A DNA stretch of 13,265 bases from a virus (lineage: Duplodnaviria; Heunggongvirae; Uroviricota; Caudoviricetes). The DNA lies in the IMG/VR virus record IMGVR_UViG_2939152649_000005, one strand, 5' to 3'. The translations under genes were made by a program, and so were the position numbers. The notes under the pieces are model-generated. The model was not told the origin of the DNA, did not search any database, and saw nothing but the letters and a program-made list of their open reading frames with translations. How positions within the stretch are numbered: the first letter of the stretch is position 1; every line of letters begins with the position of its first letter. Of the stretch, positions 2,908 to 11,972 are shown piece after piece.

Positions 2908-3139
2908 ACTGAAATTTCACCACCATAACTTTGCTTGATTAATAACCAAATTACATGAATATTTTGGTTTGGGTCCGAATAACGGATACAAACCAGAACA
3001 GGACCTACCACCAGAACCGCTATTAGTTGTATCGAATTTGACACAATGCCCGCCCGCAGTAATCAAGCCGTCAAGCAAATATCGTTGTGCTGTTCATGAC
3101 ACACCTGATCCCTCAAGAATTGCTCACAGCGAGAAAAAT

Positions 3140-4195
3140 ATGGATACCCCGGACATAATTTCCGTACCAGAGGTCACTGCTGCGACAGAACCGCAGTCCT
3201 CTGCAGAATGCTTCACCTTTGGCGATCCCATTCCCGTACTGGACCGGCGCGAACTGCTGGACTATGTGGAATGCGCGCAGATGGATCGCTGGTATGAGCC
3301 GCCGGTGAGTTTTGCAGGGCTGGCACGTACCTACCGAGCAGCCGTACATCACAGTTCACCAATTGCCGTTAAGCGTGACATTCTCAGCAGTACCTACATC
3401 CCACACCGCCTGCTCAGTCAGCAGTCTTTTGCCCGTTTCGTTCAGGATTATCTGGTGTTTGGTAATGCCTATCTGGAAAAGCGTACTAACCGGCTGGGCG
3501 GCGTCCTCACACTGGAGCCAGCGCTGGCGAAATACACCCGGCGCGGCGTTGACCTGGAATCCTACTGGTTTGTTAACTATGGCCTGACAACGCAGCCTTA
3601 TGAGTTCACCAGAGGCAATATTTTTCACCTGATGGAACCGGATATTAACCAGGAAATTTACGGGCTGCCCGGCTACCTCTCCGCCATTCCGTCAACCCTG
3701 CTCAACGAGTCCGCAACGCTGTTCCGCCGGAAGTATTACATCAACGGCAGCCATGCGGGCTTCATCATGTACATGACCGACGCGGCGCAGAATCAGGAGG
3801 ATGTGAACAACATCCGCAAGGCAATGAAAAGCGCCAAAGGGCCGGGCAATTTCCGCAATCTGTTTATGTACTCACCCAATGGCAAAAAGGACGGCATCCA
3901 GATCATCCCGCTGTCAGAGGTGGCGGCGAAAGATGAGTTTCTGAACATCAAGAACGTGAGCCGTGATGACATGATGGCAGCGCACCGCGTGCCGCCGCAG
4001 ATGATGGGTATCATCCCCAGCAACACCGGCGGCTTTGGCGATGTGGAAAAGGCCAGCCGTGTTTTTGTCCGCAACGAACTGATGCCGCTGCAGAAGCGAC
4101 TGCAGGAGCTGAATAACTGGCTGGGCGAAGAAGTGATCTGCTTCGAGCCTTATTCTTTACAACTTGATGAAAGTGCTGATAGCAACAGGGGGTAA
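3140..4195 (+). CDS. Possible P2 gpQ-type phage portal protein (351 aa from the first ATG); the family assignment is tentative
   Basis: Long ORF with ordinary codon usage. The track ORF begins at a TTG at 2969; the first ATG is at 3140 (MDTPDIISVPEV...). Its size matches the ~340-350 aa I recall for P2 Q, and it is transcribed toward a structured candidate cos region, as P2 Q is. I cannot confirm the family from memory. Confidence 0.5.
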   Translation: MDTPDIISVPEVTAATEPQSSAECFTFGDPIPVLDRRELLDYVECAQMDRWYEPPVSFAGLARTYRAAVHHSSPIAVKRDILSSTYIPHRLLSQQSFARFVQDYLVFGNAYLEKRTNRLGGVLTLEPALAKYTRRGVDLESYWFVNYGLTTQPYEFTRGNIFHLMEPDINQEIYGLPGYLSAIPSTLLNESATLFRRKYYINGSHAGFIMYMTDAAQNQEDVNNIRKAMKSAKGPGNFRNLFMYSPNGKKDGIQIIPLSEVAAKDEFLNIKNVSRDDMMAAHRVPPQMMGIIPSNTGGFGDVEKASRVFVRNELMPLQKRLQELNNWLGEEVICFEPYSLQLDESADSNRG

Positions 4196-4198
4196 TGT

Positions 4199-4561
4199 AT
4201 GGGATGGATCGGCGTTGATCTGGATGGCACGCTGGCGGTGTACCCGCCAGAGAGCGGGGCGCTAATAGGTGATGCCATTCCCGGCATGGCGGAAAGGGTC
4301 CGCAAATGGCACAAGGATGATATTGAAGTACGAATTTTTACCGTCCGGGCTGGTTCGCGTGCCGGAGTGAAGCAAGTTAAAGCCTGGTTGAAAGCCAATG
4401 AACTGCCGGACCTGATGGTGACGAACGTTAAAGACAGCGGCATGGTGGAATTATGGGATGACAGAGCGATACGTGTTATCCGTAATACCGGTTCAGTATG
4501 CGCCGGTTGCAACGGCACATCGCAGTTCCACCACCATTCAGGAGATTTCACCAACTGCTGA
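4199..4561 (+). CDS. Small HAD-superfamily-like protein (putative minimal phosphatase/nucleotidase) with a Cys/His-rich C-terminal tail
   Basis: ATG at 4199 is 3 nt after the upstream stop and is preceded by AGGGGG. The N-terminus MGWIGVDLDGTLA matches HAD motif I (hhhhDxDGT). Motif-II-like Thr in RIFTVRAG, downstream lysines, and motif-IV-like ELWDDRA occur with spacing compatible with a cap-less HAD fold. The tail is SVCAGCNGTSQFHHHSGDFTNC. Confidence 0.6.
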   Translation: MGWIGVDLDGTLAVYPPESGALIGDAIPGMAERVRKWHKDDIEVRIFTVRAGSRAGVKQVKAWLKANELPDLMVTNVKDSGMVELWDDRAIRVIRNTGSVCAGCNGTSQFHHHSGDFTNC

Positions 4562-4633: not shown

Positions 4634-4863
4634 GCATGAACCATGCCACGGCACATGCGCCGCTCAGGTTGCCATTTCCCCCCTCTGCGCGCGCTGCCCC
4701 CCACGCCTGCCCGCTTCGCTTAACAGAATGGTTTTCATGCACCCCGTAAATCGCCTCAGGAGCCGCCACACAAGGGCTTTCACGTCAAAAATGATGCATG
4801 AGACTCATGCGTTTTCATGCGCCATAGACATGCACTCATGCGCTCTCAGGCCAGCCAGGAAAA

Positions 4864-4897
4864 AGGCGTAAAAAATCCCGGTGCCGGGCCGGGATTA
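4864..4897 (-). terminator. Rho-independent terminator for the minus-strand late operon (after the delta-like gene)
   Basis: Perfect 8-bp stem AATCCCGG/CCGGGATT with a 7-nt loop. On the minus-strand transcript the hairpin is followed directly by a U-run (UUUUUACGCCUUUU). It lies 20-50 nt beyond the stop of the 4917-5189 gene. Confidence 0.6.
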
Positions 4898-4916: not shown

Positions 4917-5189
4917 TCAGACAGGGATTTGCTGGCGGCTTGATAACTTTGATGCAGAGCCATAGCGATTGAGCGTTTGCTGTTGTTTTTCCGGCATTTG
5001 TGCTTTGTCTGATTCCTGTTCATTGCGCCGGGGCTTCATAATTATCTTATCCACACTTTCCAGAGCGGTAAATGTGCAGGAACATTCAAGATTCTGGCAC
5101 TGATACCATGAGCGTTTAACCGACGGTGCTTCATAGGCGGTGGTTCTGGCGTGTGCAACGGTGCCGCATTCAGGACATTTCAGCGCCAT
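4917..5189 (-). CDS. Ogr/Delta-family zinc-finger late-gene transcriptional activator
   Basis: 90-aa protein MALKCPECGTVAHARTTAYEAPSVKRSWYQCQNLECSCTFTALESVDKII... has the CxxC...CxNxxC arrangement and the HART/YxCxN motifs I recall from P2 Ogr and P4 Delta. Its ATG overlaps the stop of the upstream gene (ATGA), indicating translational coupling. Confidence 0.85.
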   Translation of the reverse strand: MALKCPECGTVAHARTTAYEAPSVKRSWYQCQNLECSCTFTALESVDKIIMKPRRNEQESDKAQMPEKQQQTLNRYGSASKLSSRQQIPV

Positions 5190-5950
5190 CAGATACCCTC
5201 CATATCACGGTTACGTTTCTGCAGCTCTTCACGTTCCTGACGGATCTTCATTTTGTGAAGGGCCGCCGGTGACGGGATTTTGCTTAAATCGACACGAGCC
5301 GCATAATCCGGCGCAACGCCCGCCAGTTTAAACACAGGGTCCTGTTCCGGCATCGCAGTGTTAGCAAGAGCCGGTTTGGTGATATGTTTGTGAATAAAGT
5401 CTTTCAGCAGTGTGTCCGGGTCATTAACTGAATTCACCACCCCCACAACGGCACTGGCTTCCCGCCCCATTGTGGTTTTGAGCAGGCTCAGTGTCTGGAT
5501 TAACGCCTTACCATGCGCCTGCATGAAGTCTTCCCAGATTTGCTTTGCGCGAATTTCCACAAGGGTGTTATGTGCGCTGATATACTGCCCGGCTAATTTC
5601 CCGGCTTCCTGCGGTAATAAGGCATTTTCGCTTTCCTGAGCTGCCAGCAGTTCATCAAAATCCTCAAGCGTTTCTCGTCCCAGCGCAATTTCCGTGCGCA
5701 GTTTTTTCATTTCCTTTGAGACTACGCCCTGACTTTCACGAAACAGCGTGCGCCACTCCTCATTCAGCGCGTTCGTCGTGGCTTCCATTTCAGCCCGGCG
5801 CTGGCGGATTGTCGCAATATTATCCGCTGCCGCTTTCTGCCGACGACGTGCTTCAAGCCATGCGCTTCTGGCTGTGTTCAGGGTTTCCATTGCCTGCTGC
5901 GTTACAGCCGGAAAAGTGGAAAGGTTGTTATTCTCTGCGGTGTTGTTCAT
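5189..5950 (-). CDS. Psu/Sid-family protein (P4 polarity-suppression / capsid-size-determination-like), 253 aa
   Basis: ATG at 5950 preceded by AGGAG. Segments QQAMETLNTARSAWL and EDFMQAHGKAL resemble regions of P4 Psu as I recall it (QQAFDTCQNNKAAWL, NDFMQQHGTAL). The protein is ~60 aa longer than P4 Psu, closer in length to Sid, and sits directly upstream of the delta-like gene as sid does in P4. Confidence 0.65.
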   Translation of the reverse strand: MNNTAENNNLSTFPAVTQQAMETLNTARSAWLEARRRQKAAADNIATIRQRRAEMEATTNALNEEWRTLFRESQGVVSKEMKKLRTEIALGRETLEDFDELLAAQESENALLPQEAGKLAGQYISAHNTLVEIRAKQIWEDFMQAHGKALIQTLSLLKTTMGREASAVVGVVNSVNDPDTLLKDFIHKHITKPALANTAMPEQDPVFKLAGVAPDYAARVDLSKIPSPAALHKMKIRQEREELQKRNRDMEGI

Positions 5951-5984: not shown

Positions 5985-6040
5985 TGTGTCGTGACTGACA
6001 CAAGCGCACTATCGGCGCTCAGTGTGTGGTGGCTGGCACA
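5985..6040 (-). promoter_or_regulatory. Candidate Ogr/Delta-dependent late promoter region upstream of the Psu/Sid-like gene: two TGT-N12-ACA dyads
   Basis: TGT-N12-ACA at 5985-6002 (inside the palindrome TTGTGTC-gtgact-GACACAA) and at 6023-6040. The second is centred ~80 nt upstream of the ATG, compatible with the -55 position described for P2/P4 late promoters. The motif is short, so chance is not excluded. Confidence 0.35.
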
Positions 6041-6127
6041 ACGGGCGTTTGCGGTTATTCAGACGCGGCCATGACAGCCAGCCAGATAAAAATGCCTCTG
6101 TTTCAGCCTGCTTTATGTCCCGGATGC

Positions 6128-6326
6128 GGTGAAACAGGTGGAACAGGTGTTACAGCATTGTTTTGTAAAACATTTATATGCACATCACAGGTGAAACATC
6201 GCAGGTAACAAGGTGGAACAGCGGATCGGCTGGCGTTCCACCTGTTCCACCTCACTATTTCAGAAGGTGAAACAGGTTTAGCCCTTGTAAAATACGGTTG
6301 TTCCACCTGTTACACTTGTTACCCTT
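6128..6326. repeat. Iteron array (about 10 copies of GGTGRAACA / TGTTYCACC in both orientations); candidate replication origin or crr-type site bound by the alpha-type primase
   Basis: Read directly: GGTGAAACAGGTGGAACAGGTG (6129-6150), GGTGAAACATCGCAGGTAACAAGGTGGAACAG (6190-6221), GTTCCACCTGTTCCACC (6236-6251), GGTGAAACAGG (6266-6276), GTTGTTCCACCTGTTACACTTGTTACCC (6298-6325). The core is close to the TGTTCACC type-I iteron I recall for P4 ori/crr. The array lies between the 3' end of the primase gene and the late operon. Confidence 0.6.
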
Positions 6327-6350: not shown

Positions 6351-9023
6351 TTAACCTAGAACCTCGCTGTTGAAGACATAGAGCCTGCGGGGATTCATCT
6401 CTGGCGGGCGAATGTTTGTCTGCAGCTTGCCATCGGTGGAGGGCAGCAGATATCCACGATCCGCGCACAGACGTGCCACCTTGCGCGGGTCAAATCCCCG
6501 GCAGATTTCTTTCCAGCCGGACGGCATGACGTAGAACGTGGTGACAGCTTCCGTGCCCTGCGCGGTACTGCCTTTCTCCACCCTGCGCCAGCCCACCATA
6601 TTGCCGGGGCGGTTGCGCTCGTCGTGCCAGTCAGCAAAGCGGCTGTACTGATTCGCGGTAAAGAAACTGCGTACCTGCTCCAGTGCGGCAATATCTTCCT
6701 GATTGGCGGTGTGCCCGCGATCTTTCAGCCATGCGTTTAGGCAGACGCGGGTTGCCCGCAGCGCTTCACCCTCAGGCCAGCCGGTAATACCCAGCCGGGT
6801 TGCCAGCTCGCCCGCCATCGCCACCAGTGCAAAGCGGTTCACAGCCCGGCCTACCTGATTACCCGCATCTTTCGGGGTCAGGGCGGCGGTATATTCCTTC
6901 ATCAGTGACTTTGCCTGTGCCGTCAGCCCGTTAAGGTCAGCGGTCAGGGCTTTCAGCCACTCCCTGAACGGCGAACCGTAGTAGCTGGACGTGGCCCACT
7001 CCAGATGTTCCGCCAGAGCCTTGCCGCTGTCGAAGCCGTGCAGCTCCTCAAATACGCCAAATTTCCCGGAATCGCTGGGGATCTGGATCATCCTGACTTC
7101 CATCCCGGCAAAGGTACGCTCACCGGCTTTTGCCGCATGTTCGGTCAGTGACAGCTCGCCGGTTGAAAAGAACAGCAGCCGCCACTGCTTACGGGTGCGC
7201 AGCTCACCGTCCGTACCGGCACGGCCCTTGCCCTGACCGTTTGCCAGCATGTAGGCGATATTACCCGCCTCGCGTCCGTCCACCTCCCGGATCTCATCAA
7301 GCATCATGGCGGCATCGTTGCGGCGGCTGGCGCATCCCTCCAGCGCGTTGCCGGTTGCCCGCCACGTCTGCCAGTAATCAGGCCCGCCACAAACGGAGGT
7401 TGCCGCTTTCATGGTGGTGGTCTTACCGTCAGTCGATTCCCCCTTGAGGTGGTAGCCGCCGCCGTCCATCCCAACCAGCCGTAACAGGGGTGCAGCAAAG
7501 GCCAGACTGACGGCAAACGCCACGCGGGAGTTACCGGTGCAGTAACGGGAAACGTGCTCCCGCCATTCCTCCGTTGTACCTGACACACGGAAATCGCGCC
7601 CCTGCACGGAAGTGGTCTGGAGAATGACACCCTCTGCACCTTCACCGCTGACCTCATCCTGCAGGACGTAAACCTGACCATGCCAGCCAGTGCGGCTGAC
7701 GCAGGTCACGCGGCGTTCCGGTTTACACAGCGAGATATATTCCATCAGGCGGGCGCGGGCCTCACCGGTGGTGCTGATATAGGACAGCCCGTTAACCAGC
7801 AGTACCCGGCGCAGTTCCTCACCGCTACCACTGAGCATTTCCATCGGCATCGCCCAGCGGCGGCGCTCTCCCCATGTATCTTCCCACTCCAGCAGTCGCC
7901 CGAAATTACCGCCATCGGCATCGCAGGTGATTGCCGTCACGCGCAACGGGTTGCATATTTTGACGTTCTGGATCTCCGTCTCACCGTTGCGCTGTACCTG
8001 TTTTTCATACCAGAGATATTCCTGGGTAAGACGGAACCCGTGCGGCAACTGCGTGCGGCCTTCTCCGCACAGTACAAGACCGTTACGAAAGGCTTCACGG
8101 GCACGTGTAATACCGTGCTCACGGTGGAAGTCATTCCAGTCAGCTTTAATTTCTCCCGGTGGCAGCGTCACCCAGCCACCGACTGATTTTGCCGCCCGTT
8201 CAGCAAAGGATCTGCCGGGATTCTCGCCCCCGTCCTGAAAATCGTTATCACCGGCGATGATAATTTTTACCTCAGGCCAGCGTGCCCGCAGCGCCTGTGC
8301 GACGTTGGGCAGGTTGCCCGCCGATATGGCCGCCACTACGCATCCGGCGGTGAGCTGGCTTACCGTCAGCGCCGTGGCGTAACCTTCGGTAATCACCACC
8401 TGTACCGGCGGTTCAGACGGTAACGGGCTGAGCGCCACAAACGCGCCTTTCATCGTGCTGCCGGGCAGTATGCTTTTTTCACCCGTCGGGGCGATAAGCT
8501 GTGCACCGGTCACGGCTCCGGCGTTCGTCGTGAGCGGTAACAGCAGGGAACCGGCAGGGAAATCCTTACCACTGATATGCTGCACGCTCCCGGTCAGGGA
8601 GGCCGGGTATCCGGCGAACCCTTTTCCGGTCAGATAGGGGCTTTCTCCCGTGTGACTCTCTTTCATCAGGGCCGCCACGGTAAGGCTCATATCGCGTTTA
8701 GGGGCTTTTTGCCTGGCGGGCTTAACGGGCAGTTCCTGCACATCCGGCACATTAAGCACCTGCGCCACCTCCTGCGCTGCCTTTCTGACGCCGTAACCGG
8801 TTATGAGCTTAACCAGATCCAGACCATCACCATTGCCGCACTGGCTGCAAATCCACGTCCCGCGCCCGTCGAGGTCATCGAGGCGGAAGCGATCCTTGCC
8901 CCCACATTTCGGGCAGGGACCGTGCCTGCCGTTTTCAGGTACATCAATACGCAGCATCTGCAGAATGACGGGCCATTTTCCCCGCGCTGCGGCTGAAATC
9001 TGCGTAACCGTCTGTGTTGTCAT
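6351..9023 (-). CDS. P4 alpha-type bifunctional DNA primase-helicase (zinc ribbon + Toprim-like primase + P-loop NTPase)
   Basis: 890-aa ORF. N-terminal CPKCGGKDRFRLDD...WICSQCGNGDG is a CxxC...CxxC zinc ribbon. IIAGDNDFQDGGENPG is a Toprim-like acidic DxD motif. GYHLKGESTDGKTTT is a Walker A (GxxxxGKT). Its ATG overlaps the stop of the upstream small ORF. Confidence 0.9.
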   Translation of the reverse strand: MTTQTVTQISAAARGKWPVILQMLRIDVPENGRHGPCPKCGGKDRFRLDDLDGRGTWICSQCGNGDGLDLVKLITGYGVRKAAQEVAQVLNVPDVQELPVKPARQKAPKRDMSLTVAALMKESHTGESPYLTGKGFAGYPASLTGSVQHISGKDFPAGSLLLPLTTNAGAVTGAQLIAPTGEKSILPGSTMKGAFVALSPLPSEPPVQVVITEGYATALTVSQLTAGCVVAAISAGNLPNVAQALRARWPEVKIIIAGDNDFQDGGENPGRSFAERAAKSVGGWVTLPPGEIKADWNDFHREHGITRAREAFRNGLVLCGEGRTQLPHGFRLTQEYLWYEKQVQRNGETEIQNVKICNPLRVTAITCDADGGNFGRLLEWEDTWGERRRWAMPMEMLSGSGEELRRVLLVNGLSYISTTGEARARLMEYISLCKPERRVTCVSRTGWHGQVYVLQDEVSGEGAEGVILQTTSVQGRDFRVSGTTEEWREHVSRYCTGNSRVAFAVSLAFAAPLLRLVGMDGGGYHLKGESTDGKTTTMKAATSVCGGPDYWQTWRATGNALEGCASRRNDAAMMLDEIREVDGREAGNIAYMLANGQGKGRAGTDGELRTRKQWRLLFFSTGELSLTEHAAKAGERTFAGMEVRMIQIPSDSGKFGVFEELHGFDSGKALAEHLEWATSSYYGSPFREWLKALTADLNGLTAQAKSLMKEYTAALTPKDAGNQVGRAVNRFALVAMAGELATRLGITGWPEGEALRATRVCLNAWLKDRGHTANQEDIAALEQVRSFFTANQYSRFADWHDERNRPGNMVGWRRVEKGSTAQGTEAVTTFYVMPSGWKEICRGFDPRKVARLCADRGYLLPSTDGKLQTNIRPPEMNPRRLYVFNSEVLG

Positions 9024-9403
9024 ACTTCCCCCTGATACAGCGAAACACCCGAGCTGCAGAAGTCATCAAATGCCGCCGGAAGTGTGCGGTACAGCTCCGC
9101 CATCACTTCACAGCCGCGCACAGTCAGTACCGGTGGCGCGGTCAGCAATGATGGCTCCAGCATGTCAGTCAGCAGCGCCAGTGCAGCCGCTGCTCCCTGT
9201 GCTTCGCCATATTCGTTAATCAGTGCGCACTCGATATGCAGGGCAATGGCCATTTCAATACGTTCAACCGTCAGGCTGTGCGGACCATAGTGATCGCAGC
9301 CGGTTTCGGTCAGCGCTTTCTGGCGCCAGGCCGATGCAATAGCCCGCCGGTAAAGCGCAGTGGTCATTTCTGCCGGAAAAATAGAAACCTGCGGCTGGTT
9401 CAT
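9020..9403 (-). CDS. Hypothetical protein (127 aa), last of four small coupled ORFs upstream of the primase gene
   Basis: Start overlaps the stop of the 9400-9684 ORF; stop overlaps the primase start. Same strand and operon as the primase. No motif recognised. Confidence 0.55.
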   Translation of the reverse strand: MNQPQVSIFPAEMTTALYRRAIASAWRQKALTETGCDHYGPHSLTVERIEMAIALHIECALINEYGEAQGAAAALALLTDMLEPSLLTAPPVLTVRGCEVMAELYRTLPAAFDDFCSSGVSLYQGEV

Positions 9404-9684
9404 TGGGTGCCTCCTTCAATCAGTTCGCAACTGTGCGCAATATCCGTCAAATCTGCCCGCAGGTACTCCATCAGCGCGGCGATGCCTGGCGCACATCCTG
9501 CATCCAGCGTTCCGCCCTGCGAGGGGTATTCAGAAAAGAGAAGCTGCAACATGTCGCAGGCCTTTCTGGCGCGGGCCAGCTTTCCGAAACCGTCCTCTGA
9601 CAACCCATACGCAAAAGCACCGCTATTGTGTTTTTCAGGCAAAGCGTGGCCCTGAGCACCGTTGTGCCCGTTTGAAATATTCAT
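9400..9684 (-). CDS. Hypothetical protein (94 aa) in the replication operon
   Basis: ATG at 9684 preceded by GGAG at about 9 nt; stop overlaps the start of the next ORF. No motif recognised. Confidence 0.55.
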   Translation of the reverse strand: MNISNGHNGAQGHALPEKHNSGAFAYGLSEDGFGKLARARKACDMLQLLFSEYPSQGGTLDAGCAPGIAALMEYLRADLTDIAHSCELIEGGTQ

Positions 9685-9715
9685 CGTGGATTACTCCGTT
9701 TTCAGCGGTGTTTTG

Positions 9716-10075
9716 TCAGAGAAACTTTGAATAGTGACTGTCGTCAGGTTCAGCAGAACGCCGTATGCTGCGCTCCCGCCAGCGGGTAAATACCACCGAC
9801 GGATGCAGCGTCAGCGAGCCAGAGCCGCTACCCCCCGCGGGAGCTGGCGAAGGTTTAAAGAGCGGCGCATCAAACAGGCGCGTATACCGCTGTTCAAACC
9901 ATGCCAGAGGGCAGGAAGAAAGCTGGTTGTCGCTGTCATGACGTATCAACACTTCACAGCTGAATTCAGGATTAACCAGCGCCACGGAGGGAGACGCTTC
10001 AATTAGTCGGATGATTGTTACGGTCCAGCCACGTTCATGCTGCCAGCGTTCGCCGGGTTGCGGATAATTACGCAT
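9716..10075 (-). CDS. Hypothetical protein (119 aa from the ATG at 10075) in the replication operon
   Basis: The track ORF is extended to 10105 by an alternative start. The ATG at 10075 is preceded by GGAGG (GGAGGTGAACATG) and overlaps the stop of the upstream 58-aa ORF (ATGCGTAA). Confidence 0.55.
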   Translation of the reverse strand: MRNYPQPGERWQHERGWTVTIIRLIEASPSVALVNPEFSCEVLIRHDSDNQLSSCPLAWFEQRYTRLFDAPLFKPSPAPAGGSGSGSLTLHPSVVFTRWRERSIRRSAEPDDSHYSKFL

Positions 10076-10244
10076 GTTCACCTCCACAGGGAATGCGACC
10101 GGCAAAGCTCAGCACATAGTCCGGGGCCAGTCTGCGCCGCGCTGAGCGCTCGTTATCTGCGGTGATCCTTAACATCACAGGACGGGCATTGCGTTGACTG
10201 CGGTTGATCGCCGCAAATAACCAGGTAAACTTCTGTTTAGCCAT
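10068..10244 (-). CDS. Small basic hypothetical protein (58 aa), first gene of the replication operon
   Basis: ATG at 10244 with GAGGA 8-9 nt upstream. The 244-aa track ORF 10068-10802 shares this frame, but its upstream part crosses an intergenic region, a terminator, and genes on both strands, so only the last 58 codons are credible. Confidence 0.45.
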   Translation of the reverse strand: MAKQKFTWLFAAINRSQRNARPVMLRITADNERSARRRLAPDYVLSFAGRIPCGGEHA

Positions 10245-10320
10245 CTTCGTTTCCTCATACAGCGGATTGGTCAGAAGCCCGGTTAGTGTTGCTGCACTGT
10301 CGGGCTTCGCATTCACAAGG

Positions 10321-10410
10321 TGAATCGCACCTTTGCTTTTAAAGCTACCCTTAAGTGAATCGCACTTCAAGTCTTTTATTATCATTTTTTTTGCGTATAC
10401 TGAATCGCAC
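10321..10410. promoter_or_regulatory. Three direct repeats of TGAATCGCAC in the divergent promoter region between the RHH gene and the replication operon; candidate operator sites
   Basis: Copies at 10321-10330, 10366-10375 and 10401-10410. The third directly follows a TATACT (-10-like) hexamer located ~30 nt upstream of the RHH gene's ATG. Confidence 0.5.
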
Positions 10411-10431
10411 CTAACGCAAGGAGATCCAGTA

Positions 10432-10617
10432 ATGGCAACGGGTTCAACTAACAACAAGTCGCAGCAACTTAATGCTCGTTTCCCACATGATGTAGTTGCA
10501 GAATTAGAAAGCAACCTTGAAGATGGAGAAACGAAAGCGCAATTTATTGTTACCGCTGTAAAAGGCGAGATTAAACGCCGACAGCGCAGGAAAAATAAGC
10601 CAGAGCAAGTAAACTGA
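10432..10617 (+). CDS. Small ribbon-helix-helix (Arc/MetJ-like) DNA-binding protein; candidate repressor
   Basis: 61 aa from the ATG at 10432, with a strong AAGGAG 8 nt upstream. NARFPHDVVAELE resembles the RHH N-terminal beta-strand/helix of Arc (NLRWPREVLDLV). It is divergent from the replication operon and followed by a terminator. Confidence 0.6.
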   Translation: MATGSTNNKSQQLNARFPHDVVAELESNLEDGETKAQFIVTAVKGEIKRRQRRKNKPEQVN

Positions 10618-10680
10618 ATAGAGAAGCGAACAGACGTTCTCTCAGGTTCCATGTCAATTTCAGTAAGCGACAATATTTTT

Positions 10681-10714
10681 AAGCCCACAAACTCAATTTG
10701 TCGGGCTTTTTTAT
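10681..10714 (+). terminator. Rho-independent terminator for the RHH gene, at the convergence with alpA
   Basis: AAGCCCACAA-actcaat-TTGTCGGGCTT hairpin (one bulge) followed by TTTTTTATT on the plus strand. Confidence 0.55.
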
Positions 10715-10944
10715 TAGTGATTTTCATGCCGTTCACCACGAGAGGCATATATTTGCTCTTGAATCCAGTGATCGACTTCGCTTTCAACAAATGAAATTGC
10801 ACGAGTTCCTATTTTCACCGGGCGGGGAAATGTATTGTTTGAAAGCTGTTTGTAAAGCCATGCCTTGCTACGCTGAACGCGTCTTAGCACCTCTTTTGCT
10901 GAGATAAGAGTCTGATTATCTGAAAGGTTGTTTGCATATTCCAT
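10714..10944 (-). CDS. alpA: AlpA-family phage regulatory protein (MerR-like HTH; excisionase/Vis-like)
   Basis: 76 aa from the ATG at 10944, with GGAG 7 nt upstream; the track ORF is extended by a GTG start. ...ISAKEVLRRVQRSKAWLYKQLSNNTFPRPVKIGTRAISFVESEVDHWIQEQI matches the AlpA signature I recall (L..EV....GLSRST.Y.....G.FP.P.K.G.R...W...E...W). Confidence 0.8.
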   Translation of the reverse strand: MEYANNLSDNQTLISAKEVLRRVQRSKAWLYKQLSNNTFPRPVKIGTRAISFVESEVDHWIQEQIYASRGERHENH

Positions 10945-11250
10945 CTTGTTACTCCGTGTTCTACTTAAGTTCACGGTGACTTTAAACAGTGTAAGAACAT
11001 GATTCTAGTGATAATGGAATCTATCGAAACCGATATAGTTTCTATTGAAAGATTTTTATTTCTATTAAAAATGAAATGCAAACTTGATCGGCATCTAGTT
11101 AAAAATAAAACACAATAATATCATAAAGTTAAATTATAACTTCGAGTTCAAAACATGGATTAAAGTCACTCAATGGGTATTCATTGCACTATAACACATC
11201 ATATTTCCCCATATCTCCCCAGTATTACGCAGTTTTAGCCAGTTTATTAC

Positions 11251-11290
11251 TATAGCCCCTTATAGCCCCTTATAGCCACTTATAGTCCTG
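11251..11290. repeat. 10-bp tandem repeat TATAGCCCCT x4 (two perfect, two degenerate copies)
   Basis: TATAGCCCCT TATAGCCCCT TATAGCCACT TATAGTCCTG read directly, 45-80 nt downstream of the 212-aa gene stop in an AT-rich spacer. Confidence 0.8.
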
Positions 11291-11333
11291 AATCAGGGTA
11301 AGAAATGAAAGACTTTTATCTACTAATAGAAAA

Positions 11334-11972
11334 TCATTTCCCATACTTAATAATATCATTCCCAATTTTTACTTTTTTATAAAACGTGGCTTTCTTAACC
11401 CCTTCCAGTGAAATTTGATGCTCATTACAAAAAGAGATAATATCATTATATATCACACTATTATCACCATAACTTGCCTTACCATATTTTTTGAGCAACT
11501 CAATTAATAATGAAATTAATTTACAATTATTATTATCTTCATCCTCTTTTCTGTATTGCCCTCTGCCATTACTCCTTAACTTTTTACCAACTTCATATAA
11601 TTCACTTCCTCCTAACATCATTAAAATATCGCCCCAATCTTTATTTTTTACTTGTTGTAGCAATGCGTTATCAATTCTTTCCTTAATTTCAGGAGGTACA
11701 ATATCTTCCCTCTGAAAGATATAAGCGGCAGTTAATACTAAATTCGCTTCCACTTTTTGCGTGGCGGATATGTTTTTATATTCATTAATTAATTGTAGAT
11801 TTCTGGTTATTGCCTTTCTTAACCTAATAACCTCTTTTAATTGAATATCAGTTAATTCATCATTTTCTGTATCATAGTCAAAACCATTCATAGCAAGCGC
11901 TACTTCGTGCGGCGTAATGTATGTTAACCTATTAAAATAAAACAAATTATTATCAGATTGAGTGTTATTCAT
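11334..11972 (-). CDS. Hypothetical protein, 212 aa, strongly AT-rich orphan cargo gene directly downstream of the integrase
   Basis: ATG at 11972 with GGAG 8 nt upstream, 30 nt after the integrase stop on the same strand. Asn/Lys/Ile-rich composition and AT-rich codons contrast with the GC-rich replication module. No motif recognised. Confidence 0.7.
   Translation of the reverse strand: MNNTQSDNNLFYFNRLTYITPHEVALAMNGFDYDTENDELTDIQLKEVIRLRKAITRNLQLINEYKNISATQKVEANLVLTAAYIFQREDIVPPEIKERIDNALLQQVKNKDWGDILMMLGGSELYEVGKKLRSNGRGQYRKEDEDNNNCKLISLLIELLKKYGKASYGDNSVIYNDIISFCNEHQISLEGVKKATFYKKVKIGNDIIKYGK

Follow-up and report, generated by a model that had tools for sequence, protein, structure and literature searches.

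A probable Psid-type late operon with sid and delta, and without psu, in a P4-family satellite

Which protein is encoded when the late operon of a P4-type satellite contains a single gene of the Psu/Sid family, and what kind of operon does such a gene belong to? This question is raised by positions 4917-5950 of a 13,265-nucleotide (nt) stretch of viral DNA (IMG/VR record IMGVR_UViG_2939152649_000005), the whole of which is called the window below. A sequence-only reading of this region had described one Psu/Sid-family gene (253 amino acids; positions 5189-5950) that precedes, and is translationally coupled to, an Ogr/Delta-like gene (90 amino acids; positions 4917-5189), and exactly these open reading frames were recovered. 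It had taken the first gene for an enlarged member of the Psu/Sid family and the operon for a reorganised version of that of satellite phage P4, neither of which was borne out. Instead, the region very probably represents a Psid-type late ('helper subversion') operon of a P4-family satellite integrated at leuX, with sid and delta and no psu. The order from sid to delta, the coupling of the two genes and the two-site promoter are the same as in P4, and only psu is missing.

Identity of the 253-amino-acid protein

Sequence comparison and structure prediction clearly identify the 253-amino-acid protein as an orthologue of P4 Sid, and not as an enlarged Psu. Its gene (minus strand, with a Shine-Dalgarno sequence GGAG before the ATG) is predicted to encode an external scaffold for capsid size determination. 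In BLASTP searches, the protein aligned end to end with P4 Sid (25% identity across 246 amino acids; E-value 6e-14), whereas only 110 C-terminal residues aligned with P4 Psu (E-value 2e-5). Similarly, phrog_6165 was matched over the full length (E-value 8e-95, versus 7e-10 for phrog_6366), which is the family into which P4 Sid itself falls (E-value 6e-116), P4 Psu being a member of phrog_6366. A profile of 29 family members aligned across the length of the Sid chain 7jw1_E (E-value 3e-18), versus an alignment with Psu (3rx6; E-value 6e-6) in two pieces, namely residues 16-43 and 111-235, with a gap of ~65 residues in between. The internal insertion relative to Psu that had been noticed from the letters alone is real in this respect; it is nothing other than the defining feature of Sid, a longer coiled-coil stem. 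The Pfam model of Psu (PF07455) matched residues 117-235 only (profile positions 59-174; 33.8 bits versus a threshold of 27.4), so that the full-length match expected for a Psu of about 182-190 amino acids with a short stem was not obtained.

The structural data pointed in the same direction. Sid possesses an elongated coiled-coil stem, longer than that of Psu, that allows trimerisation, and a C-terminal helix that follows a linker loop (PMC7552001). An AlphaFold2 model of the 253-amino-acid protein (predicted local distance difference test score of 85.5) contained helices at residues 15-72, 79-108, 112-166, and 228-251, and its predicted fold thus displays both the long stem and the C-terminal helix, as in P4 Sid. 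Comparison by Foldseek with Sid in the P4 procapsid (7jw1_E) gave template modelling (TM) scores of 0.73/0.78 and a root-mean-square deviation (rmsd) of 4.3 Å over 237 columns, versus TM scores of 0.40/0.53 and an rmsd of 13.8 for Psu. The pairwise alignment and structure prediction against both P4 proteins, which had been proposed as a check, thus returned Sid over its full length and Psu in part. The gene order is that of Sid too, as the gene is the first one of an Ogr/Delta-type late operon and is followed by delta. Furthermore, homologues of 46-91% identity hold the sid position beside a separate Psu gene of 182-190 amino acids and a 90-amino-acid delta in nine related loci (L004, L006, L007, L009, L010, L014, L018, L023, and L024), three of which (L009, L010, and L014) combine Sid alleles that are 87-91% identical to that of the window with a genuine Psu. 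Among the 253-amino-acid alleles, sid is under purifying selection, with ratios of nonsynonymous to synonymous substitution rates (dN/dS) of 0.08-0.33 at a synonymous divergence (dS) of up to 0.57.

Database entries name the protein 'polarity suppression' or 'septation initiation' protein, and, if these names were right, the element would have no size determinant. The names can be traced to the 'Psu-like' label carried by both PHROG families and to the partial PF07455 match, which, besides the source names themselves, is all that speaks for them. This explanation is hardly credible, as phrog_6165 is the P4 Sid family and Psu belongs to phrog_6366, the alignment with Psu is broken by the ~65-residue gap, the structural match with Psu is poor, and the true Psu of the relatives is a different gene of 182-190 amino acids. 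NCBIfam contained no model for Sid or Psu. With P4 Sid as the query, tblastn found no match in the window despite the clear BLASTP alignment, which was attributed to composition statistics. The sid-delta region had no match in a phage collection, either at the DNA level or by tblastn. P4 being too distant at database-scale E-values, it was compared directly. The value of the finding is mainly corrective, in that a gene that is widespread under the names 'polarity suppression' and 'septation initiation' protein encodes a satellite capsid size determinant, which would be miscounted as Psu under the PF07455 criterion used in surveys.

Promoter geometry, translational coupling, and Delta

Upstream of sid, two putative activator sites of the Ogr/Delta type (TGT-N12-ACA) were found on the minus strand, a distal one (positions 6023-6040; TGTGCCAGCCACCACACA) centred 81.5 nt and a proximal one (positions 5985-6002; TGTGTCAGTCACGACACA) centred 43.5 nt upstream of the sid ATG, hence 38 nt apart. 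The sites of the P4 sid promoter (Psid) lie at identical distances (-81.5/-43.5). In 17 of 18 related loci, both distances were within 3 nt of the P4 geometry, with the distal site 79.5-84.5 nt upstream; in the remaining locus (L023), the 38-nt spacing was kept and the distances to the ATG had been taken from a wrong start coordinate. The cognate TGT-N12-ACA sites of Ogr/Delta-family activators are expected ~55 nt upstream of late transcription starts, and the annotated activator site of the P2 PF promoter is centred ~83 nt from the ATG and ~58 nt from the annotated start. The motif occurred six times in the whole window versus 3.0 expected, which is not significant by itself; it is the position and conservation of the two sites that carry the argument. 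Their match with the P4 Psid geometry, conserved in relatives, makes it probable that sid and delta form a bona fide Ogr/Delta-type late operon, for which activator binding and the transcription start are predicted from the sequence.

The two genes meet in a coupling junction (positions 5187-5203, minus strand; ATGGAGGGTATCTGATG) that comprises the last Sid codons, a Shine-Dalgarno sequence GGAGG, the sid stop codon, and the delta start codon. The GGAGG (positions 5197-5201) is located inside the last sid codons, 7 nt ahead of the delta ATG. The overlap had first been read as ATGA, which is the sid/delta overlap of P4 (positions 10314-10317 of that genome), whereas in the window it is TGATG, the A at position 5189 being common to the stop codon TGA (positions 5191-5189) and the ATG (positions 5189-5187). 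The same one-base, TGATG-type overlap was present in L008, L011-L013, L015-L017, and L028-L032. After delta, an intrinsic terminator (positions 4866-4896, minus strand) consists of a GC-rich 8-bp stem (AAUCCCGG/CCGGGAUU; positions 4874-4881/4889-4896), a 7-nt loop, and a U-run, corresponding to a T-run on the minus strand, so that the terminator reported before was confirmed. A consensus terminator scan missed it, and the hairpin was read and folded by hand. A stretch of 66 nt gave an unremarkable folding z-score (-1.1); the case for the terminator consists of the hairpin, the U-run, and their conservation; in L009, L011-L014, and L017, hairpin and T-run are kept and bases of loop and stem are changed.

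The second gene, delta (positions 4917-5189, minus strand), encodes a predicted single-domain zinc-finger late activator of the Ogr/Delta family. PF04606 (Ogr_Delta) matched its 90-amino-acid product once (residues 4-50; E-value 1e-16; 60.9 bits versus a cut-off of 26.3), and the zinc-finger motif C-X2-C-X22-C-X4-C is formed by Cys5, Cys8, Cys31, and Cys36. In contrast, the P4 Delta (166 amino acids) has two zinc fingers and matches PF04606 twice; the Delta of the window matches each half and is 43% identical to the first repeat. It is 47% identical over 51 residues to P2 Ogr (72 amino acids), which has one zinc finger of the same type, and differs from Ogr in a low-complexity C-terminal tail that is 18 residues longer and in being satellite-encoded and coupled to sid. 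That the protein has a single, Ogr-like domain had been seen correctly, but this does not set the window apart. Delta proteins translated from 11 relatives are 90-93 amino acids long, and wherever delta is complete (21 loci), 96-100% of the Delta of the window is covered by the match, indicating that a single-domain Delta is the rule in these relatives and the two-domain Delta of P4 the exception. The Delta protein of the retronphage phiR73 is a single-domain late activator as well. Short Delta homologues in P4-like loci have been mentioned before (PMC11718236).

The P4 sid-delta-psu operon (NC_001609) further resembles that of the window in that sid comes first, delta is coupled to it by an overlapping stop and start, transcription proceeds toward cos, and ori-type iterons are located just upstream of the promoter. 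It differs in its orientation, as the primase gene precedes the operon of the window and has the same orientation, whereas the P4 operon diverges from the early operon. In the proposed mechanism, helper-encoded Ogr and, subsequently, the satellite's own Delta would activate transcription by binding to the two sites ahead of sid. A single mRNA would then yield Sid and Delta, ribosomes that terminate at TGATG, beside the GGAGG, starting on delta, and the hairpin and U-run would end transcription just ahead of cos. Delta would feed back on the sid promoter and act on the late promoters of the helper. Sid may trimerise via its long coiled-coil stem and build an external cage on the capsid protein of a P2-type helper, which would force assembly away from T=7 and into small T=4 capsids that can accommodate the ~10.7-kb cos-bearing element and not the helper genome. 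Without Psu, capsid decoration and Rho inhibition would simply be missing.

Absence of psu and the operon layouts of related loci

In the whole window, tblastn searches with P4 Psu, the Psu of L009, and a 270-amino-acid paralogue gave matches inside sid only. A second gene of the Psu/Sid family was found neither in the window nor within flanks of 8-10 kb in relatives that have this layout, in agreement with the single gene of this family described before. The case named then as a refutation, namely orthology to Psu only, with sid located elsewhere, turned out to be the reverse of what was found, i.e. a Sid orthologue without psu. A comparison of the operon layouts across 22 related loci yielded sid-psu-delta in nine loci, sid-delta followed by the 270-amino-acid third paralogue (sid-delta-psu270) in five, sid-psu-delta plus this paralogue in two, and sid-delta only in the window, L002, L003, L011, L012, L013, and L017; in L005, delta is frameshifted. 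Five further loci, two from Salmonella Typhi and three from other assemblies and metagenomes, have sid-delta only as well, the S. Typhi pair belonging to a protein cluster of 249 member sequences. The third Sid/Psu-family paralogue, of ~270 amino acids, lies after delta (L008, positions 11063-11875; also L015, L016, and L019-L022). It is ~30% identical to the Sid of the window over ~75% of the length of the latter, has an N-terminal extension, and scores 16.5 bits with the Pfam Psu model, which is below threshold. In two loci, Sid, Psu, and this paralogue occur together.

The psu-less sid-delta-terminator-cos layout and its backbone were encountered in Escherichia coli, S. Typhi, Citrobacter, Enterobacter soli, Pantoea stewartii, and metagenomes. 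Among complete genomes of E. coli, a close delta allele is present in ~700 and the direct sid/delta junction in at most 137; as this junction is common to the layout with the 270-amino-acid paralogue, genomes with sid-delta only are fewer than 137. The recurrence across genera and the purifying selection on sid indicate that the layout is conserved and widespread, and not a one-off deletion. Psu-less P4-like clades have been reported before, together with the possibility that Sid is sufficient by itself (PMC8628076). In those satellites, as in the window, a Sid homologue occurs without psu in conserved elements that look intact; that study highlights a Serratia/Yersinia clade on a canonical P4 backbone, unlike the present layout, which occurs in Escherichia, Salmonella, Citrobacter, Enterobacter, and Pantoea on a backbone with a DUF927 primase. 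The psu-less layout is thus common in enterobacteria, already described in principle, and largely ordinary. It provides a natural test case, even in S. Typhi, for the dispensability of Psu and for the hijacking of a P2-type capsid by Sid alone.

As to its origin, the closest sister elements are informative. In L009 and L010 (Klebsiella) and L014 (Shigella), the integrase, AlpA, the DUF5375 protein, and the 890-amino-acid primase are 98-100% identical to those of the window, Delta is 88-94% identical, and promoter, terminator, and cos are the same; they differ in a 183-amino-acid Psu encoded between sid and delta, with a sid/psu overlap of ATGA. Compared with L009, the window has 43 bp, comprising the codons of the Sid tail and the Shine-Dalgarno sequence of delta, in place of exactly psu (579 bp). 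The sid/delta junction of the window aligns contiguously with that of L008 (sid-delta-270aa). Both layouts share a 5' half of delta at ~90% identity; the 3' half of the gene (...TLNRYGSASKLSSRQQIPV) and the terminator match only elements that end in delta. These patterns suggest that psu was lost in one step, when two operons with alternative gene orders, sid-delta-270aa and sid-psu-delta, recombined by a single crossover where the 5' half of delta is conserved.

Alternatively, the 253-amino-acid protein may be a dual-function, 'unduplicated-like' Sid/Psu that, besides setting capsid size, decorates the capsid and/or inhibits Rho, in which case psu would not be needed. The element does lack psu, a dual role of Sid in psu-less elements has been raised (PMC8628076), and the Pfam model of Psu is matched above threshold by the C-terminal half of this Sid and not at all by P4 Sid. 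Nevertheless, the L009 allele (91% identity) reaches 39.5 bits with the Psu model, more than the Sid of the window, and adjoins a bona fide Psu, which makes this Psu-likeness a trait of the lineage and not an adaptation to psu loss. Moreover, the only systematic difference of the psu-less Sid alleles is the C-terminal tail, a layout common to the elements with the 270-amino-acid paralogue, and the predicted fold is far closer to Sid than to Psu. A dual function is therefore unlikely, and nothing in the sequence indicates that Sid takes over decoration or the Rho block.

The operon may also be regarded as a decaying remnant, in which psu was deleted in a defective, non-mobilisable island and the other genes are turning into pseudogenes. 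Cryptic P4-like elements are indeed common in E. coli, and beyond the element a second integrase is truncated by an insertion sequence (IS) of the IS3 family, with another IS fragment present. Every gene of the element is intact, however, the same layout occurs in at least five genera at a synonymous divergence of up to 0.47 and a dN/dS of about 0.2, and conservation extends to the promoter sites, the coupling junction, the terminator, and cos, so that decay is a very improbable explanation.

Several observations weigh against a functional Psid-type operon of a P4-family satellite, as preferred here. The Sid identification involves no more than 25% identity to P4 Sid, and the last ~14 Sid residues, in the region of the capsid-contacting C-terminal helix, differ from those of the alleles that coexist with Psu. 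Small-capsid formation by this Sid with a putative P2-type helper is a prediction from the genes, and independent gains of psu are an alternative to its loss. The adjoining IS3 element and truncated integrase make local decay possible. Furthermore, the replication module deviates from that of P4. The 890-amino-acid primase (positions 6351-9023, minus strand; Zn_Ribbon_Prim, Toprim_3, and DUF927 domains) is 37% identical to P4 alpha residues 4-311 in its N-terminal Zn-ribbon/Toprim part; nothing beyond matches alpha, the C-terminal part being DUF927 instead of the D5/Pox_D5 helicase part. The epsilon/Ash domain (PF10554), present in canonical relatives, had no match among the 10 open reading frames of the window that were scanned. 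The element therefore does not count as a canonical P4-like satellite, since its replication module is not P4-type, unlike its integrase and its hijacking module (Sid, Delta, Psid, and cos). Of the seven components by which P4-like elements have been defined (PMC8628076), four are present (integrase, Delta, Sid, and AlpA), and Psu, an alpha of the Pox_D5/PF03288 type, and Epsilon/Ash (PF10554) are not, unless Sid is miscounted as Psu via PF07455. Elements of this kind can hence be misclassified in two ways, as Sid passes the Pfam threshold of Psu and the primase and missing epsilon fail the P4 markers. The same primase (98-100% identical) is common to elements that differ in late-operon layout and cargo.

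The integrated element and its cargo beyond cos

The window contains an integrated element at the leuX tRNA-Leu locus that is 96% identical to an element in E. coli ET734. The element, of ~10.7 kb, which is a P4-like size, is bounded by the tRNA-Leu 3' end and an imperfect, attR-like copy thereof at the right end of the satellite (positions 2814-2829; TGGTGCGAAGGCCGGA). On the minus strand, it encodes successively the integrase (72% identical to P4 Int), a 212-amino-acid protein, AlpA (matching PF05930), small open reading frames including an Icd-like one, the DUF5375 protein, and the primase, followed by an iteron cluster, sid, delta, the terminator, and a cos-like site. The iterons (GGTGRAACAG; eight copies in both orientations, positions 6098-6307) lie between the primase stop codon and the sid promoter; the motif matched 12 times in the window versus 1.6 expected, with eight of the 12 matches in this cluster. 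They resemble the type-1 repeats of the P4 ori, which is located just upstream of Psid, and the cluster is probably the replication origin of the element. The cos-like packaging site (positions 4686-4741, minus strand) aligns with both the P4 and the P2 cos region and includes the equivalent of the 19-nt cohesive end (positions 4694-4712, minus strand; GGGCAGGCGTGGGGGGCAG). The element thus combines a P2-type cos with a genome size suited to a small capsid, as in P4-like satellites. Across the satellite loci, the sequence is conserved up to the cos-like site and variable past it.

Wider interest attaches to what adjoins the operon beyond cos, namely portal and tail-gene cassettes. In the window, a cassette outside the operon, convergent on cos and inside the att-bounded element (positions 3028-4561, plus strand), contains a P2-gpQ-type portal gene (351 amino acids; positions 3140-4195, plus strand) and a HAD-like gene (120 amino acids; positions 4199-4561, plus strand), preceded by two TGT-N12-ACA sites (positions 3028-3045 and 3086-3103, plus strand) that are centred 103.5 and 45.5 nt upstream of the portal ATG. 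These sites are conserved, and the similarity with Pantoea stewartii begins at the distal one. The portal protein is 88% identical over its whole length to that of Klebsiella phage ST15-OXA48phi14.1 (92% over the matched part) and up to 93.5% identical to helper-phage portals over the matched part. An acidic N-terminus and a longer C-terminal tail occur in satellite copies only, and the satellite portals are under strong constraint (dN/dS 0.05-0.19).

In L009 (positions 11857-15018), the same cos-proximal slot carries the P2-type tail genes E and E+E' and a tape-measure protein gene (877 amino acids), and in L030 and L032 (positions 8311-11704), it carries E, E+E', and a tape-measure protein gene too (954 amino acids in L032). 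The gpE cassettes have two TGT-N12-ACA sites at -81.5/-43.5 (or -82.5/-44.5) from the gpE ATG, which is the Psid geometry, whereas the spacing of the portal sites differs from it. It is conceivable, albeit tentative, that this slot in Sid-only satellites holds helper-derived structural genes (a portal in the window; tail chaperones E/E' and a tape measure in relatives), as variants of the satellite's own that are expressed late. Possibly, such genes bias particle assembly in favour of the satellite, compensate for the lack of antitermination by Psu at distal helper genes, or poison helper assembly. Recent surveys found almost no exchange between P2 and P4 hotspots (PMC13586616). If the idea is right, it would imply a flow of structural genes from helper to satellite that these surveys did not report, and cassettes of portal and tail genes equipped with late promoters would revise the view that P4-family satellites do nothing but steal structural proteins.

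Two other explanations of the portal gene were considered and rejected. A remnant of a P2-type prophage fused at cos would not account for a nucleotide similarity to helper phages that is limited to positions 3212-4152, within the portal gene, nor for the location of the cassette inside the att-bounded element and the strong purifying selection among satellites. Compensation for psu loss by the portal, as a rule, was unsupported, since psu and portal are both missing from L011-L013 and the S. Typhi elements, and in L015 a portal occurs together with a second paralogue.

Directly beyond the attR-like repeat, a second P4-type integrase gene starts (positions 1701-2651), which is 55% identical to the first one and is truncated by the IS3-family element (positions 350-1563), with another IS fragment also nearby. 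This second, truncated integrase beyond the right end of the satellite indicates two islands in tandem at leuX. At the other flank of the primase, the Icd-like small open reading frame (positions 10089-10232, minus strand) is 54% identical over 48 amino acids to the C-terminal part of the annotated P4 'cI' open reading frame, and a YlcI/YnfO-family open reading frame in the reverse orientation (positions 10333-10617, plus strand) is annotated in relatives; together, they are probably the immunity and early control region. Lastly, the 212-amino-acid protein between integrase and AlpA (positions 11334-11972, minus strand) belongs to phrog_30524 and has no Pfam match. It is kept in L009, L010, and S. 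Typhi and is replaced by other genes in L030-L032, and its position may be a second variable cargo slot.

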